DNA of 62,474 bases, filler included, from an uncultured bacterium (GTDB taxonomy: Bacteria > Hinthialibacterota > Hinthialibacteria > Hinthialibacterales > Hinthialibacteraceae), in assembly GCA_964449065.1 (NCBI GenBank). It is 8 parts of 8 records of this genome, joined end to end, with 100 filler letters (N's around TTAATTAATTAA, not from the genome) between each part and the next. Parts side by side here need not be neighbours in the genome. Positions count along the whole stretch, not along the records: positions 47,243 to 54,828 come from CAYVAZ010000254.1; 7 more parts are not named here. One strand, 5' to 3'. The position numbers and the translations under genes are program-made. Shown here piece after piece: positions 47,143 to 55,243 of the stretch; the stretch's first letter is position 1, and every line of letters starts with the position of its first letter. The notes beneath the pieces were generated by a model. That model searched no databases. It had not been told where the DNA came from and was given only the letters and a program-made list of their open reading frames with translations.

Positions 47143-47467
47143 NNNNNNNNNNNNNNNNNNNNNNNNNNNNNNNNNNNNNNNNNNNNTTAATTAATTAANN
47201 NNNNNNNNNNNNNNNNNNNNNNNNNNNNNNNNNNNNNNNNNNAAATAATGACTGATAAGCGCGGCGTAAGCCCAGCGAAAGGAAGATGTTAAGTATTGAA
47301 TATACAGCAATCTCAAATTGCATAGGTATAAATACCATTTTCACCGCAACTTGGTATAACTTCATCCCTCATTGGTTTCACGGAAGGTCTCTTCCCCGGC
47401 ATTCTAACAAAGCAATCTGCTGAATCACTCTGTGTATTGTTCACAATCTCCAATCGCATCCGCTGAA

Positions 47468-50128
47468 TTAAATGTGTGTTGATGCCCCTGCTGGATATTG
47501 TTCTTCTTCAAACGAAAGATCATCGGAGGTGACACGGATAATCTCATCGATAGAGGTGATCCCTGCCAACACCTTATAAATCCCTTCTTCACGAAGGGTT
47601 TTCATTCCCGCTTTGATGGATGCTTCACGAATGTCCAGCGAAGTCGCGCTGGCTTCAACCAAATTCCGAATTTCCCGGTTGGGCACCAAAATTTCATAGA
47701 TACCGGTTCGTCCCACAAATCCGGTATGGTTGCAATCGCGGCAGCCTTTTTCTTTGTAGATATTTTTCCCGTCTAATATACCGCCTTCTCTGCCCAGCCG
47801 TTTCATTTCCGCATTGGTGGCTACGGCGGCTTTTTTACAGGTCGGGCATAATTTACGGACCAAACGCTGGGCGACAATACATTGCAGGGCTGAACTCAGC
47901 AGTTTTACATCCACACCGATATCAATTAATCGGGCCAACGTTTGTGAAGTATCGGTTGTATGCAAGGTTGAATACACCATGTGCCCCGTCAGGGCCGCGT
48001 TTACGGCAATGGTGGCGGTTTCCAAGTCGCGAATCTCTCCAACCATGATGATATCCGGGTCTTGCCGAAGGATGGATTTCAACGCGTTGGCAAAGGTCAT
48101 TCCGGTCGCGCTGTTGTGCTGAATTTGGTTAATGCCGTTTAATTCGTACTCAATCGGGTCTTCGACGGTAATGATGTTCTTTGTGCCGTCATTAACGAAC
48201 TGCAAAGATGAATACAGCAGGGTGGTTTTGCCGCTTCCGGTCGGTCCGGTTGCCAGGATAAGACCGTGTGGAGAGATGACCGCATTGTGGTATTGCTCCA
48301 AGGTTTCTTCGCGCATTCCAAGCCGGTCTAATGTGGTAGAGACCATGCGTTGATCCAGCAGTCGAAGGACCCCTTTTTCACCGTGGTTTGTCGGGATCGT
48401 GGAAACCCGTACATTTATGTCTTCGCCCATAATCACCCGTCGGAAATGGCCGTCCTGCGGTTTGCGTTTTTCGGCAATATCCAAACTGCACATAACCTTA
48501 ATGCTGCTCACGATGAAAGGTTGCAGTATACGGTCTAATTTAAGGGTTTCCGTAATCACCCCATCCACCCGGTAGCGGATATCCAAGGACTGTTCGACCG
48601 GTTCAATGTGGATATCACTGGCACGGATCCTTCTCCCTTGTACCATGATGAGTTGAATCAATTCCAGCATTTGCTGCCGCTGCGTTTCATCGGTTTCGCC
48701 GCCGGAGCGCTGTTTGGCGAGAATGATGCTGCCTGCCTGCCGTTCAATGAGTTCCGGCATCGTGAAAATTGGCTTGATCTTTGTATTGCAGAAAGGGCAT
48801 ACATCGAATTCGTAATTCTCAAACAATTGAGGGTTTTCCAGTGAACGATTGCAGGAGGGACACTTTCGACCCGGTTTTTCCCGAATCATACGGTCGATGA
48901 AATAAAAGATCAGACCGAACAATCCGGTGTAGCGAACTATTTTATGCCAGTTGTAATAGATGATTTTGCGGTTGGGTAAATCCTTCAGCAAAATTTTCAT
49001 GGGGATATACCAAAAGACAATCAACACGGCAATGAGCGCGCCTAAGGCTTTCAAAATGCTGAAGATCATCGGTACCACGTCCGTGGATCCACTCGCGGCG
49101 TTGGAAAACAGGTCTGTAATATTGCTCCTAAAATTTCCAAACCATTGTCCGATAGCTTGCGAAGTGGAACGCTCTTCTTGCGCTTGTTCTTCCACAGCCG
49201 GTTGGCGCTGCCGGGCGATGAGCGGGGTGGGTTTGGGGGCCAATTCGCGTTCGGCCCTGTTTAATGCCCGCTGCAAACGGCTGGCTTGCCATCCACTTAA
49301 ACCGGCTTGGCTGACATTTTTAAGATAACTGTGGGTTAACCGGTAGTTTTCGTTTTCATAAGCGATTAGACCTAAATAAAGTTCAGCCAAATTATTGCCG
49401 GGGTCTAATTTTAAGGCCTCTTTAAAGGCGCTCTCCGCCTGGTTCAAGTTCCCTTTGCCGTATTGAAACTCTTTTTCTCCTTGCAGAATGTACAGTTCCG
49501 CCAGTTGAGTTTCCAAACCGCTGGCGACCGGGTTTTCCGGATAATTATCAAGTACCACTTTAAAATGCTTGATGGCCTCGCCGTATTGATTTTGATCAAT
49601 TGCCCGTTTTCCGGCATTGTAATGGCTTTGGGCGATTTTGTTATCCAATGATACTTTGGCGGATTGCAGCGTGGATAAAGTGACGGGGTCGGAAATACGG
49701 GTTTTGAGATGTTCAATTGCCTGGATATCTTCCAGACCGTTTTTGAGGGGATCGTGTGTGGAAAGAGTATTGACAAAGCCTTGTACCGATTTGCGTAACC
49801 CGTTCACGACCGATTGTTTCTCTTCGCCGGTTTCCGCGAGTGATTGCGCTTGCAAAAACATATCCAACGCTTGATCATAATTGTTGCGGGTTTCTTCCAG
49901 GCGGGCTTGCGCCAAGAGGTTTTCAAACCGGGAACGTTCAACAATCCGGTCGATTCTCTCGCGTTTGAACGCGAATACCCCACCCGCGGTTTCAACCAAT
50001 ATTTCATTGGGACCGGATTCCCGGATCACACCTTCAATTTTTCTACCGTCTTTAAAATAGATTTCATCGGCTTGAGATAGGTGTCCGGCAAAACAAATGG
50101 TCAACAAGAGAATGAGGAATCGATTCAA
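47468..50128 (-). CDS. GspE/PilB-family secretion/pilus ATPase fused to a signal peptide, TPR region, TM helices and Zn ribbon
   Basis: ASDIHIEP, R.DG, LDIAEKRKPQDG, Walker A GPTGSGKTT, TVEDPIE, RQDPDIIMVGEIRD, TGH...TLH and CPTC...CRDC. N-terminal SQA|D signal peptide and TPRs. Confidence 0.9.
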   Translation of the reverse strand: MNRFLILLLTICFAGHLSQADEIYFKDGRKIEGVIRESGPNEILVETAGGVFAFKRERIDRIVERSRFENLLAQARLEETRNNYDQALDMFLQAQSLAETGEEKQSVVNGLRKSVQGFVNTLSTHDPLKNGLEDIQAIEHLKTRISDPVTLSTLQSAKVSLDNKIAQSHYNAGKRAIDQNQYGEAIKHFKVVLDNYPENPVASGLETQLAELYILQGEKEFQYGKGNLNQAESAFKEALKLDPGNNLAELYLGLIAYENENYRLTHSYLKNVSQAGLSGWQASRLQRALNRAERELAPKPTPLIARQRQPAVEEQAQEERSTSQAIGQWFGNFRSNITDLFSNAASGSTDVVPMIFSILKALGALIAVLIVFWYIPMKILLKDLPNRKIIYYNWHKIVRYTGLFGLIFYFIDRMIREKPGRKCPSCNRSLENPQLFENYEFDVCPFCNTKIKPIFTMPELIERQAGSIILAKQRSGGETDETQRQQMLELIQLIMVQGRRIRASDIHIEPVEQSLDIRYRVDGVITETLKLDRILQPFIVSSIKVMCSLDIAEKRKPQDGHFRRVIMGEDINVRVSTIPTNHGEKGVLRLLDQRMVSTTLDRLGMREETLEQYHNAVISPHGLILATGPTGSGKTTLLYSSLQFVNDGTKNIITVEDPIEYELNGINQIQHNSATGMTFANALKSILRQDPDIIMVGEIRDLETATIAVNAALTGHMVYSTLHTTDTSQTLARLIDIGVDVKLLSSALQCIVAQRLVRKLCPTCKKAAVATNAEMKRLGREGGILDGKNIYKEKGCRDCNHTGFVGRTGIYEILVPNREIRNLVEASATSLDIREASIKAGMKTLREEGIYKVLAGITSIDEIIRVTSDDLSFEEEQYPAGASTHI

Positions 50129-50282
50129 AAAAACTCTCCTTTGGAGACGACCGGTTTTTTTCTATGAGAGGTACTATATTCGATGAATCGTTATTTGTCA
50201 TTTATTATGAATCGGCTTAGGTATAGAGCAACTGTATCATCGGTTATGAAACCCGTCCACTGAAAAAAACAGTGCGGCGTGA

Positions 50283-51563
50283 TCAATCACTTCGAACGAT
50301 GCGAAAGCCGTAACTGCGGCCTTGCTCGCCTCCAGAACGGGGAAAACGGTGCGCGACCCGGGCATAATAGGCGCTAAAGTTCCACGATCCGCCTTTGAGA
50401 ATGCGCAAGTGCTGATCATAGAGAGGGTTGGATACATTTCTGCCGGAATGGCTTTCAAAAAAACCGGACACCCACTCAAACGCGTTTCCGGCCATATCTT
50501 CTGCCCCAAATGGACTGGCCCCGCGAAATTTCAGCCCCACAGGTGTGGTACCCCTTCGCTTTGATTCCCATGTGTTGGCTTTTTCCTTATCGAATTCGTT
50601 CCCCCAGGGGTATTCCCATTGATGATGGGCTTTGGCGGCACGCTCCCATTCCGCTTCAGTAGGCAGACGCGCTCCCTTCCACTGACAATACGCGTCGGCG
50701 TCTTCAAACGATATCCAAACCACGGGATGTTTTTCCAAACCCGCCGGGAGGACGCCTCCATCCCAGTGCGGTGGAGGGGGATAATTGGCGGCTTCAACAA
50801 ACTGTTTGTATTCGGAATTGGTGACTTCATACTTGCCGATGTAAAAGGCATCCACCAGTTTCCGTACAACGGGTTGTTCTTCCTTATCCCCTGTTTCCGA
50901 ACCCAAAAAGACTTCTCCCGCTGGAATATAGACCATTCCGGGATATTTATTCAATATGCGGTCCGGTATCTCACCGTTTTCTTTTAGAATAAGTGATTTG
51001 GTATTCCCGCTGTTTTCTTTAAAGACCTCTTCTATTACTCCCCGCCCCCAACTTCCGAAGAGTTCGGTTTCCGTAAGAGTGGATTTGGTGCGATAAACGG
51101 AATTTAATATTTTTTGTTCTTTGCAGTCAATTAAACGCAGCGTCATTTCAAATTTTCCGTTTTCGCGGTGAATGTTGCCTGCCAATACCTGGTCGGCGCC
51201 CAAAATGTTTCCCATCGAAATAAAACAAGGCAGATCGAAACAAGGCAATTTGAATTTATTTTTTTTCAGAATGGCAAGCATGGAGGAACGGCTCAGGACG
51301 CGGTAAGTCCCGCTTTGTTCAATTTCCCGCCGCATGAATTCACTAAACGCGTTGGCTTCCGCAATGGAGGATTTCTCTTTGACGGTACGCAAATCGGTTA
51401 TGACCAATAAGGGAACCGGTTTCGCGGAGGAGTTTGGCACGCCGGCAGTAAAAAAAAGAAGGCATAGGCAAACAAATGCAAGAAGAGTTAGAAGGCGGAA
51501 ATTCTTGCGGTTACCGTCCCCGCGTCTGCGCGATAACCCGTTCCAGATTGGTACGTGCCGCAT
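50283..51563 (-). CDS. FGE-sulfatase (SUMF1-type) domain exported protein with an N-terminal CsgG/TolB_N-like domain; start uncertain
   Basis: MVYIPAG, F.IGKYEVTN, HPVV.IS..DA..YC.W, RLPTEAEWE.AA, DMAGN..EW, GGSW and GFR. Confidence 0.85.
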   Translation of the reverse strand: MRHVPIWNGLSRRRGDGNRKNFRLLTLLAFVCLCLLFFTAGVPNSSAKPVPLLVITDLRTVKEKSSIAEANAFSEFMRREIEQSGTYRVLSRSSMLAILKKNKFKLPCFDLPCFISMGNILGADQVLAGNIHRENGKFEMTLRLIDCKEQKILNSVYRTKSTLTETELFGSWGRGVIEEVFKENSGNTKSLILKENGEIPDRILNKYPGMVYIPAGEVFLGSETGDKEEQPVVRKLVDAFYIGKYEVTNSEYKQFVEAANYPPPPHWDGGVLPAGLEKHPVVWISFEDADAYCQWKGARLPTEAEWERAAKAHHQWEYPWGNEFDKEKANTWESKRRGTTPVGLKFRGASPFGAEDMAGNAFEWVSGFFESHSGRNVSNPLYDQHLRILKGGSWNFSAYYARVAHRFPRSGGEQGRSYGFRIVRSD

Positions 51564-52272
51564 TGTGGTTGGGATCCAATTGAATGGTTCGCTCAAAGTA
51601 GAGACGCGCGGTCTCATATTTTTGATCGGTTGCATTGATTTTACCAAGGACATAATAAATATCCGCGTTTCTGGGGTTTAATTCTTCCGCCTTTGCCAAT
51701 TCACGAATCGCGCCGCGGTCATAAGTATGGTCATAAAACAAAAATGCCAGTTGGGCGTGGGTATCACTCATTTGTTGTACCACCCGGCGGGCAATTTGTG
51801 AGTCGGGTTCCATTTCCAAAACCTCCTGATACGAAGCCAGCGCGTTGCGGTATTTTTCTTCGGCCCGGTATTGTTCCGCTTCCGAGATTTTGGCGTTCCA
51901 TTGGGCTTGTTTACGCTCATGCACAATGGTTTGGATGCGCTGGCGCGCGCGTTGATGACTCTCGTTTCGCTGAACGACATGCTGATAATCCATTAATGCC
52001 GCGTCTTCGTTGCCTTTTTCTTCATGAAACCGCGCCCGGCGGTAGTAATATTCTTCCCGCGGTTCACGCTCTATTTTTTTGATGCTGCTTTTATCGACTT
52101 TTACATATTCACCGGCTACGGTTTCAAGCACCAAAACCAAGCTGGAGTCTTCCAGTACCCGGCCCTCCACAATTCGTGAATAGGTATAAATGACATCCCC
52201 TTGCACTGGAACGGATAGTACGATAACAAAGAATCCCCATAACCATGCTGTCAACCTACGCGGTTTGTACAT
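51511..52272 (-). CDS. Exported TPR protein
   Basis: Signal peptide ending VQG|D, a small D.I....IEG.V domain, then TPR repeats. Confidence 0.82.
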   Translation of the reverse strand: MYKPRRLTAWLWGFFVIVLSVPVQGDVIYTYSRIVEGRVLEDSSLVLVLETVAGEYVKVDKSSIKKIEREPREEYYYRRARFHEEKGNEDAALMDYQHVVQRNESHQRARQRIQTIVHERKQAQWNAKISEAEQYRAEEKYRNALASYQEVLEMEPDSQIARRVVQQMSDTHAQLAFLFYDHTYDRGAIRELAKAEELNPRNADIYYVLGKINATDQKYETARLYFERTIQLDPNHNAARTNLERVIAQTRGR

Positions 52273-52681
52273 GACATCCCTTCCGTTTGTTGTTTGCTAT
52301 TTCTTTCCTTTACTGACGTTACGCGTTTGTTGCGATAATTCTTTATTTTTATCACTCGCTGCATCTATCGCCCTCGCCCTTTGGGAGAGGGATGGGGTGA
52401 GGGTTTTTGGTGAAAATCACCTCTAATTACGCTGTTGCGTCAAAGGGAGCAACCGCTCTCTTCGCCCTCATCTCTTATCTTCTCCCAGAGGGAGAAGACG
52501 ATAGATCATAGCGTTTAACTTAAAAAAGTTGGCCTATGACCAAATTTTTCTTTAAAGTAGTAGTAGTCAAACAGCATTTTGAGAAACATACGTTTCTTTA
52601 GTATACTCACAACCAGCAAGATTCGTCAAATTGTTTTACGGGAGAAATCGTAAGTGTGTGGAAGATGGCTAACGCGATGAT

Positions 52682-54064
52682 TTAAAACCAATACTTCAAA
52701 GCGATGATGGTCGCGTCGCCCTTGTGCCACCATTCCCGTGGAATGATATTGGGATCGATCAATGTCGCTTTGATAAGACTGATTGTAAGAACGGCAATAA
52801 AAAAGACCCGTTGTATCAATTCCGCTTTGGGCAAACCGTTCCGTTCCGCAAACAAACGGGGGGCATACCACCAGGCCGCGCAGGCAATCAAAAACCAGCC
52901 CGGCCATACGATGGATAAATTGCGCGAGAAAAAGACGGCTTGGTTGGTCATCAAAGCAAAAAACGCAATGCAGCCGACGAGGGTAGGCACCAACAATTGA
53001 TTCTGATTTTGATAGGCCGGATGCTTCCAAAAACCGCAAAATGTTAAATATCCCAAACAGAGTAGTGAAGATATAACGCCCACCCAACTGTATTGTTCCG
53101 TCAAGCAGCGAAAATACACCCACGCCATTTCCAACCCCGGTTCAAAGGTGTTGTAATCGCGGTGCCCCACTTTAAAGTACCAGACCTGTTCCAGCACGTG
53201 TTGAATAAAGCGCGAGAGTTCTTCAAACCAGTAAGGTGAAAGCAGGGTAAAGCCAATGCTCATGGCAATCCAAATGACCGGCAGCGCGATGAGCATCTTT
53301 TCCAAACCAAAACGGGTGCCGGTAGGGAGGTGTTTTAGCGTGTAGATTCCGTAGATGATTGGGATGATCAGAAACGTTCCGGCGTTGTATTTACAGGCGA
53401 CCGCTAATCCGGTGATGAAAGACAGCACACTCAAGCGAATCAACCACTGCCATATCGATTTTACCGGAGGGCAGGAGATAAAAAACGCCAAACATGCCAG
53501 CGTCAGCGCGCAAAAGAATGCCGTGGTTGAATTGACGGAAACATAAACGGAATCGCGGATATTGGCATCGCTGAACGCGAGCAGCAGGCTTGCCCCCAAC
53601 GCGGGGGTTAGCATGTTAAGCCGCCAGCCGATATAAGCCAGCAGCAGCATTTGCGCGGGAATGAGCAATACATTAAACCAGCGCACTTTATACTTGAAAC
53701 TATCCCAATGTTTTGAGACTTCCGGGTTCTTATATAACGAATGCTGCATGGGATTGGGGTAGTTCTTTTTAAACCGAGTGATTGGCGCTTCATCTCCCTC
53801 GATGGGATTCCCCCCTACTTCTTCGCTTAATTGCGCCAAAGCGATGATATTCCACGGGACACAGAGATACATGGTTCCAGTGGGGTGATAGAAAAAGCGG
53901 GGATTGAGGTCGCCGGTATAGATGATGTTCAATGCCCTGCCGATGGTGTGGACTTCGTCTTCATGCCCATCCGGTAAGAGTGGATAGCGGAGCAGCAACG
54001 CAACAATAATCGTGAGGGCGAAGGCTCCCGCCCAATACCAGGTTGATTTTTCCTTCAACATCAA
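52682..54064 (-). CDS. PMT/GT39-like (GT-C) membrane glycosyltransferase
   Basis: ALLLRY...H.DE, GDLNPRFFYHP and GLAVACKYNA; multiple TM segments. Confidence 0.8.
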   Translation of the reverse strand: MMLKEKSTWYWAGAFALTIIVALLLRYPLLPDGHEDEVHTIGRALNIIYTGDLNPRFFYHPTGTMYLCVPWNIIALAQLSEEVGGNPIEGDEAPITRFKKNYPNPMQHSLYKNPEVSKHWDSFKYKVRWFNVLLIPAQMLLLAYIGWRLNMLTPALGASLLLAFSDANIRDSVYVSVNSTTAFFCALTLACLAFFISCPPVKSIWQWLIRLSVLSFITGLAVACKYNAGTFLIIPIIYGIYTLKHLPTGTRFGLEKMLIALPVIWIAMSIGFTLLSPYWFEELSRFIQHVLEQVWYFKVGHRDYNTFEPGLEMAWVYFRCLTEQYSWVGVISSLLCLGYLTFCGFWKHPAYQNQNQLLVPTLVGCIAFFALMTNQAVFFSRNLSIVWPGWFLIACAAWWYAPRLFAERNGLPKAELIQRVFFIAVLTISLIKATLIDPNIIPREWWHKGDATIIALKYWF

Positions 54065-54248
54065 TTAACTCTCCTCCAGCGGATGCGTTACATTATTGTA
54101 TGCATTGATAGGGATTCAAGGAACAGATTATGGATCGTTTGTCGATGAGCGTATGGAGATTATCCTTAGAGAAGAAAGATAATGTGGTTTTTTTGAAGAA
54201 TTGGATTATCATAATTAATGAAATCTATCATGTAATTGTGGAATCAAA

Positions 54249-54518
54249 ATGGATATTTATGATTTGGTATTGGAAATGAAATTGCTTGAACGCCGCCTCA
54301 CTTTTTATGAAGAAAAGTACGGCATATTAAGTGAAGACTTTTATGAAGCGCTCATGGCTGGGAAATTCTCGCAATATGATGAGAATGATGAAGCACGCAA
54401 TGATTTCAGCAAATGGAAAGGTATTTTTGAGACTTGGAAACGCAGGAAAGAAGCATATGTAAAACAACTCCGCCAAAAAAATGTAACCGGTGCCATTCGA
54501 ATTCAACCCGTCACGTAA
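54249..54518 (+). CDS. Small putative antitoxin
   Basis: L..YEEKYG..SEDFY...G......DF..W pattern, recalled from antitoxins adjacent to DUF6516-type toxins. Confidence 0.6.
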   Translation: MDIYDLVLEMKLLERRLTFYEEKYGILSEDFYEALMAGKFSQYDENDEARNDFSKWKGIFETWKRRKEAYVKQLRQKNVTGAIRIQPVT

Positions 54519-54519
54519 A

Positions 54520-54651
54520 ATGTCTGAAAATCCATTGCATTCCTTAATCTCCTACAGCAGTTTTGTGGTTCATCTTCTGAACCGCTCTTCCGGTCCAAAT
54601 TTACCTTTTATCCTGAATGAGATTGAAGAAAATCATATACAGAATAAATAA
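54520..54651 (+). pseudogene. Internally deleted DUF6516-like toxin remnant (43 aa)
   Basis: MSENPLHSL.SY..FV..LL.R joined directly to PNLPFILNEIE, resembling the two termini of that family. Confidence 0.45.
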
Positions 54652-55243
54652 CTCACGTTACGCACTACATTATGATATGCCCATTTTTCTCATCGTTCGC
54701 TGCATCTATCACCCTCTCCCACCGGGAGAGGGCCGGGGTGAGGGTTCGGGAGGAATAAACCTCTAATTACGCGACTGCGTTATAGGGAGCCATCGCTCTC
54801 TTCGCCCTCATCTCTTATCTTCTCCCAANNNNNNNNNNNNNNNNNNNNNNNNNNNNNNNNNNNNNNNNNNNNTTAATTAATTAANNNNNNNNNNNNNNNN
54901 NNNNNNNNNNNNNNNNNNNNNNNNNNNNGGAGCCGTAGGCTCCGGGGGATTTTGCGTTGTTGAAAGCGTGCTTCGATCCCCCCTACCCCCCCTTAATAAG
55001 GGGGGGTAACAATGACAGTCTCTTCGTTGCGTAACATGAGTTATATATATATCTATAGGTTCAGTCAAATTAGGATTTGATGTTACGCATTGAAGATGAC
55101 AATAGCAGCAACACTAAGAAACAGAAAGTTCGCAATGCGCACAACAATTCGATTACTTCGTAAAAATTCCAAATATGAAACCTCACAATGAAAGAATTGA
55201 TTGTGGGGTTCGCATTCGCTCAACACCACCCTGCAATTCTCTA

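Follow-up and report, generated by a model that had tools for sequence, protein, structure and literature searches.

Within the window analysed here, a stretch of 62,474 nucleotides (nt) from the metagenome-assembled genome (MAG) of an uncultured bacterium of the order Hinthialibacterales (GCA_964449065.1), one gene (47468..50128, minus strand) encodes an 886-amino-acid (aa) protein, a membrane-anchored ATPase of the PilB/GspE family, in which the extension-ATPase core is carried on the same chain as a predicted signal peptide, predicted periplasmic tetratricopeptide repeats (TPRs), a transmembrane (TM) helix and an additional zinc ribbon. This layout had been proposed in a first-pass annotation of the same DNA, and it is confirmed by the open reading frame (ORF), Pfam and NCBIfam matches, an AlphaFold model and orthologues. 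We would give an even chance to the reading that the protein docks itself and serves one of the type IV filament machines of the cell as an accessory extension motor, using a borrowed platform and a TPR arm that positions the motor. As for the earlier interpretation, the fusion is real, conserved, self-anchored and predicted to have its TPRs outside and its ATPase inside the cytoplasm, but the word “motor” must be qualified because of the orphan status of the gene and the repeated catalytic decay among its relatives.

The gene is a single unbroken ORF, whereas the plus-strand reading of the same interval is rich in stop codons. Its start codon is TTG, placed 7 nt 3′ of a Shine-Dalgarno-like AGGAG (50136..50140, minus strand), and the whole gene is internal to contig G000:C254 (positions 47243-54828). 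The window (1-62474) consists of eight separate contigs (G000:C247-C255 range), with runs of N around a short linker between them, so that genes on either side of a join should not be read as neighbours. As the MAG is fragmented and of low depth (515 contigs, depth ~5), an assembly chimera or a chance read-through might be suspected; nevertheless, the unbroken orthologous ORFs of 20 other genomes and 14 distant protein clusters refute this explanation, which can be dismissed for practical purposes. Additionally, the TM helix, the zinc ribbon and the ATPase are joined within one Logan contig (run X1; 48391-49109), although this is weaker evidence than the orthologues with the same architecture, as X1 may be the source sample. 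No RNA holder is listed.

All the segments of the protein are encoded on the minus strand. The first 20 residues (50069..50128) show, by eye, the basic, hydrophobic and small-residue pattern of a Sec signal peptide, and a similar start precedes a conserved Asp in 31/31 full-length rows of the alignment. The predicted signal peptide is followed by a small beta domain (aa 21-65; 49934..50068), which has five strands in the model, a weak match to NF047433 Lepto_7_Nterm (residues 6-62, under the family cut-off) and a counterpart in a TPR protein encoded upstream. The TPR or helical repeats (aa 66-298; 49235..49933), predicted to be periplasmic, are recognised through Pfam TPR families, which fall within residues 164-273, through the helices of the model and through HHalign alignment to the same upstream protein. 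Next come a low-confidence linker (aa 299-322) and an amphipathic helix (aa 323-345) with a conserved W329, delimited from the alignment and the model (together 49094..49234), the helix TM1 (aa 354-376; 49001..49069), a second hydrophobic segment (48881..48949) and a Cys4 zinc ribbon (C423/C426/C444/C447; 48788..48862). These four cysteines are invariant in 35/35 close rows and the ribbon is present in 14/14 distant rows, together with a weak profile match at residues 422-447.

The remainder is the PilB/GspE core (N2D and CTD with tetracysteine; aa 483-865; 47534..48682), supported by Pfam (T2SSE, PF00437, residues 483-865, E 5e-126), Foldseek and a motif table in which the 15 scored residues are intact. 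The protein has the Walker A motif (GPTGSGKTT), the Asp box, the Walker B residue E698, the His box (H716/H723) and both Cys4 sets, the tetracysteine subdomain being formed by C761/764/796/799. By contrast, neither Pfam nor NCBIfam yields a match to the MshEN/N1D docking domain anywhere in the protein, as had been claimed, and the ATPase profile matches start at residue 473-483. The AlphaFold model, made from 26 sequences (pLDDT 83, pTM 0.52), shows a domain of five strands (21-63), helical repeats that extend to residue 296, a low-confidence linker and helices at 323-345 and 351-386; in it, the second hydrophobic segment is a broken helix (394-401/403-416), after which the zinc ribbon and the ATPase core follow. 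The linker between the TPRs and the membrane part is ~25 residues long, poorly conserved, usually Pro-rich and modelled with a pLDDT of 42-52. Identity to close relatives is 86-93% in the ATPase versus 65-73% in the periplasmic part, in which five residues are invariant across 20 rows. A PDB sequence search with the N-terminal profile returned generic TPR proteins among the 60 matches listed; a fold comparison of the membrane module with 48,161 chains turned up no convincing counterpart (generic helices only, best Z 6.3), which is not evidence of a new fold; and an ESM Atlas query with residues 320-480 gave no usable match.

The topology of the protein likely consists of one membrane crossing, TM1, and a re-entrant second segment, with the TPRs outside and the ATPase inside. 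Residues 354-372 of TM1 have a Kyte-Doolittle value of 2.6 over 19 residues, the loop that follows carries 4-7 K/R in 26/26 rows, and the second segment, W394-x7-G402-x2-G405-x3-Y409, has only 12 uncharged residues here, is flanked by basic residues on both sides and, in most distant relatives, holds K/R within it. Additionally, it resembles the PLDc_N hairpin (PF13396), carried by ClsA and by small membrane proteins, with which it shares the TM helix, the basic loop and the pattern W-x7-[PG]-x2-G-x3-Y. An HHalign comparison of the second segment with PLDc_N members gave a modest result (45% probability over 27 columns, score 23.9 versus at most 17.2 in 40 column shuffles). The similarity is a resemblance only, as close relatives have Gly in place of Pro and PF13396 has no match at the fusion loci; it is also not among the 25 of 67 families listed. 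The second segment of ClsA is described, in passages of PMC11698083, as a PxxG re-entrant mini-loop. The basic flanks, the short uncharged stretch and the PLDc_N resemblance make a single crossing with a re-entrant loop the likely arrangement, and the ATPase would consequently be cytoplasmic, in agreement with the topology predicted by the first-pass annotation, which the signal-peptide-like start, TM1 and the basic flanks support.

When compared with known systems, the protein has the core features of PilB/GspE and lacks two others, the docking domain and the soluble location. The top Foldseek structures are PilB, PilF and GspE, at 43-46% identity, and the three are not separated. With PilB/PilF (PDB 5tsh, 5zfr and 5oiu; TIGR02538; target TM-score up to 0.91) the fusion shares the N2D and CTD core, Walker A/B, the Asp and His boxes and the tetracysteine, but it is without N1D/MshEN, has the signal peptide, TPRs, TM helix, hairpin and extra zinc ribbon, and is encoded by an orphan gene. 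The same core, at 46% identity, is found in GspE/EpsE (PDB 4pht, 1p9r and 4ksr; TIGR02533). According to passages of PMC4471445, the association of traffic ATPases with the membrane is non-covalent, GspL being the anchor of GspE, so that the GspE-GspL pair is also a membrane-held ATPase tied to a periplasmic domain; however, the link in the fusion is covalent, N-out and unrelated to GspL, the gene lies outside any gsp operon, and the conserved signal-peptide-like start and TM helix suggest that the soluble state of the family does not apply. The fusion scores 474.5 against the PilB model TIGR02538 (cut-off 675.65) and 502.4 against the GspE model TIGR02533 (cut-off 630.25), a weak distinction because the six canonical paralogues of this genome fall short too; against the PilT/PilU model TIGR01420 it scores 168.2 (cut-off 319.1), and it groups with extension ATPases in the tree. 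Some ESM Atlas clusters, mostly of Thermodesulfobacteriota, also combine TPR and T2SSE on one chain, but they keep MshEN. Another T2SSE and TPR cluster (rank 7; 746 aa, 62 members), commonest in Goldiibacteriota, is without MshEN and represents a possible second, separate TPR-ATPase fusion.

A profile of the membrane and zinc-ribbon module found one copy in 24/35 genomes of the phylum, namely 24/26 of this order and 0/9 of other orders, and the two order genomes without it are fragmented (G015 and G017; 680 and 1080 contigs, 85-86% complete). No T2SSE match was found in an open frame longer than 703 aa in these two genomes or in 8/9 of those outside the order (G032 left out), and the idea of a hidden fusion there was dropped. 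Twenty fusion loci were cut out with their flanks; the ORF is complete in 19 of them and truncated at the end of a contig in the other. A named relative is the SURF_12 isolate, placed in OLB16, that is, Ca. Hinthialibacterota, in passages of PMC9324843. Beyond the phylum genomes, 14 further proteins of 800-917 aa match through the membrane module among the best 150 matches listed from 1.84 billion representatives (50%-identity clusters). Every one of them carries both the zinc ribbon and the ATPase core, and a taxon label, Ca. Sumerlaeia, is attached to one, the other 13 having none. In the nearest ESM Atlas cluster (869 aa, 73 members), most of the proteins with a recorded phylum are from Sumerlaeota. 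As a background control only, a metagenome scan that chose ATPase motifs returned ordinary PilB/GspE loci, and an N-terminal hydrophobic segment with a Kyte-Doolittle value of at least 1.9 was found in 0/60 parsed ORFs (80 loci, 20 unparsed).

A quick tree of 61 ATPase cores shows that the ATPase domain of the fusion has one evolutionary origin, as the 26 fusion rows included form a single clade among 33 canonical ones (SH-aLRT 98); protein P0007, which duplicates the L021 protein, was not included in the trees. The clade sits next to an orphan, long-branch extension ATPase of this genome (G000:C141; L045:175-1827), which may be noted in its own right. Public database labels for the fusion proteins are generic or wrong, e.g., “TadA”. 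No description of the architecture was found in the literature searched (listings and abstract openings, with few subscription journals), nor is the fusion mentioned in the searched passages of PMC6668835 and PMC9324843. Within that literature, this agrees with the suggestion of an undescribed variant. None of the findings that would have counted against the first-pass annotation emerged, namely, a predicted topology with the ATPase outside the cytoplasm, a junction without read support, a lack of relatives with the fusion or an already characterised family among those found.

The genome is already rich in motors and filaments. It has six canonical PilB/GspE genes, three PilT and one Tad ATPase, its gsp loci have their own GspE, and there are five PilC/GspF-type genes, TadB/C and seven secretin matches. 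As six canonical motors are present, the fusion is an orphan seventh extension ATPase. Pilin-like ORFs amount to 114, of which 95 are of one type with a near-identical N-terminus. Per-genome counts of a pilin motif are 28-206 in the phylum (order, 56-206; other orders, 28-82; reversed control, 0); a link between the fusion and this expansion was considered and dropped, since the two ranges overlap, and the counts serve as context only. In the searched passages of PMC9324843, only Tad pili are mentioned for this phylum. Two further loci of this genome deserve mention: a cluster on contig C8 (L102:7600-14999) with a 1064-aa TPR-bearing secretin, a 522-aa TPR protein and a 699-aa PilM-PilN fusion, and two tandem short secretin-domain genes of ~365 aa each, placed after a TPR lipoprotein-like gene on contig C57 (L105:5259-8418).

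In the accessory-motor reading, the signal peptide would export the beta domain and the TPRs, TM1 would span the membrane once and the second segment would dip in and return, so that the zinc ribbon and the ATPase would both be cytoplasmic, the N2D face being predicted to point toward the membrane. The core would assemble as a hexamer, like other traffic ATPases, and the covalent anchor, which in the orientation of PilB models is presumably on the side that would face the platform, may stand in for the missing N1D-GspL/PilM docking. The motor would use a PilC/GspF platform encoded elsewhere, and the TPR arm would site it at the right machine via a periplasmic partner. The most likely candidates are the co-encoded TPR and FGE-domain proteins described below, for which a sister family shows a link with a cluster of minor pilins. 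In lineages with a decayed ATPase, the protein may persist as a docking or platform-occupying scaffold, ATP turnover being dispensable there because canonical motors are always present.

Several observations, which concern the second segment, the catalytic site and the surroundings of the gene, weigh against this reading. With 19-21 uncharged residues, the second segment of the proteins of families f2 and f3 could cross the membrane, and the ClsA protein, with its similar hairpin, supports dual topology according to passages of PMC11698083. With two full TM helices, the zinc ribbon and the ATPase would be periplasmic or flipping, and the protein would be a non-catalytic relic at least in f2/f3, where the motifs are decayed. 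Nevertheless, the short segment with basic residues on both sides in this protein, the K/R inside it in most distant relatives, the invariance of the eight cysteines and the intact motifs of most rows make such an arrangement highly improbable. Besides, ATP is cytoplasmic.

The second observation is catalytic decay. The scored motif residues (Walker A/B, Asp box, His box and conserved arginines) show 0/15 changes here and in 19/34 informative close rows (one 2-site partial row was left out and some rows are near-duplicates), but 4-11 of the 15 are lost in the other 15/34, including every f2/f3 row, which is beyond what a motor role alone explains. At most one change, Thr-to-Ser at most, is found in 13/14 distant rows; the intact catalytic site is therefore probably ancestral. 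Four decayed rows of f1, the family of this genome, are scattered in a tree of the N-terminal part, three of them beside an intact sister, and their monophyly is rejected (p-AU 1.8e-45, in a test made after a similar tree had been viewed), which points to at least four independent events inside f1. The decayed relatives keep the anchor, the zinc ribbon and the periplasmic domain, with both Cys4 sets (every row covering them), R589 and R755. Proteins P0005 and P0006, for instance, are 81% identical in the periplasmic part and 56% in the ATPase, versus 73% and 93%, respectively, for P0004 and P0005. Something besides ATP turnover maintains the gene in the decayed lineages.

These data bring in the main rival to the accessory motor, which we regard as somewhat unlikely: a regulator or scaffold whose ATPase-like ring, when the periplasmic arm is engaged, would mainly occupy or license a PilC/GspF platform or mix into canonical PilB hexamers, with nucleotide binding as the switch and hydrolysis secondary. 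The repeated losses, the residues retained in spite of them and the divergent ATPases of P0005 and P0006 under a similar periplasmic part are all in line with it, as is the presence of 4-9 PilB-like matches in each of the 35 phylum genomes. However, the intact motifs and short branches of most f1 rows, together with the conservation in the distant ones, argue for selection on catalysis there.

The third observation is the genomic setting. The gene directly upstream (50283..51653, minus strand; Pfam) encodes a predicted exported protein with DUF3280/TolB_N-like and FGE-sulfatase-like domains, whose true start is uncertain, and the next one (51511..52272, minus strand; Pfam and HHalign) a predicted exported protein of 253 aa with the small beta domain and TPRs. 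The periplasmic part of the fusion is collinear with the latter (HHalign 98.9%, 210 columns), which by this alignment is a free-standing paralogue of it; therefore, the fusion probably originated when a copy of that gene became linked to a hairpin and zinc-ribbon anchor and to an extension-ATPase core. The FGE-domain gene is single copy in 25/26 order genomes and 0/9 outside (with this query), and the TPR gene is single copy in 25/26 and found in 3/9 outside at E<=1e-40. The order TPR, FGE-domain gene, fusion is kept in 12/18 f1 genomes with the fusion, including this one, but the trio is broken in the other 6/18 and in 6/6 f2/f3 genomes, and co-occurrence across a single order is confounded by kinship.

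Platform and pilin genes lie alongside the motor gene in type IVa pilus and type II secretion loci, a feature that the fusion gene does not share: across the 20 loci, the conserved neighbours include no gene for a platform, a pilin or a secretin, and a pilin-like gene adjoins the fusion in only 2/20, in hosts with 50-200 such genes. Type IVa pilus genes are often scattered, according to passages of PMC6668835. A divergent orphan PilC was considered as a dedicated platform and rejected, since it is present in just 7/35 genomes and does not track the fusion; in this genome it is a short PilC/GspF-like gene on contig C36 (L100:4293-5336). The sole genomic tie of the fusion to a filament is an indirect one: in f2 genomes, the FGE gene lies directly 5′ of four pilin-like genes (read in three, the last gene being very large) and on the same contig in a fourth f2 genome. 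The corresponding minor-pilin cluster of this genome is on contig C103. Such a four-gene cluster with acidic repeats (L106, G000:C103:9064-15200, and L107, G000:C269) occurs in 31/35 genomes and ends in a very large PilX/GspK-like protein, here seemingly split over two contigs.

The orphan location without a dedicated platform would also fit a protein repurposed outside type IV filaments, namely, a stand-alone ATPase ring, tethered to the membrane, that would serve some other envelope process together with the TPR and FGE-domain proteins. So might the weak resemblance, far under cut-off, of the FGE protein to GldK/PorK-type envelope proteins. The complete extension-ATPase signature, including the tetracysteine subdomain, and the minor-pilin linkage that the partner genes show in f2 make this very unlikely.

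The receptor-like layout raises a different question, namely, whether ATP turnover could be switched across the membrane by a ligand or cargo that the TPRs bind in the periplasm. The conserved W329, W373, P376 and R387, the hairpin near the membrane and the ~100 alternative pilins to select from would suit such a gated motor; however, the floppy linker is a weak mechanical coupler, few periplasmic residues are invariant and no ligand is known, so we find it doubtful and quite unlikely. In a broader version, which we consider unlikely as well, the hexamer in the inner membrane would be a trans-envelope receptor-motor whose six TPR arms, with the TPR and FGE proteins, read the minor-pilin priming complex or cargo and switch assembly on, the pseudo-ATPase versions being the same switch without the motor.

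Other features near these genes may be recorded. A 460-aa membrane protein with no Pfam or NCBIfam match, GT-C glycosyltransferase-like by eye, is encoded at 52682-54064 (minus strand), and in three other genomes (L021, L022 and L085) its gene is found next to those of the TPR and FGE proteins. Between this gene and the TPR gene, at 52339-52520, lies a repeated intergenic element with a summed contig depth above 1000, versus ~5 for genes. Finally, P0111, P0123, P0141, P0161, P0177 and P0204 form a family of proteins of 610-695 aa with several matches each to the small-beta-domain and TPR unit.

Type IV filament motors have been described as soluble proteins that are found at the membrane only via partners such as GspL/PilM, while the fusion appears to build in both an anchor and a periplasmic domain. 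It is thus a natural test of whether docking proteins merely tether the ATPase or also pass on force, and matched active and decayed pairs, such as P0005 and P0006, let one ask what a pilus ATPase does without catalysis. If the receptor-motor version were true, bacteria with 50-200 pilin genes could decide what to build. In any case, hosts whose pilin genes number from dozens to hundreds, and which also have many motors, pose an unstudied sorting problem, in which the fusion may participate.

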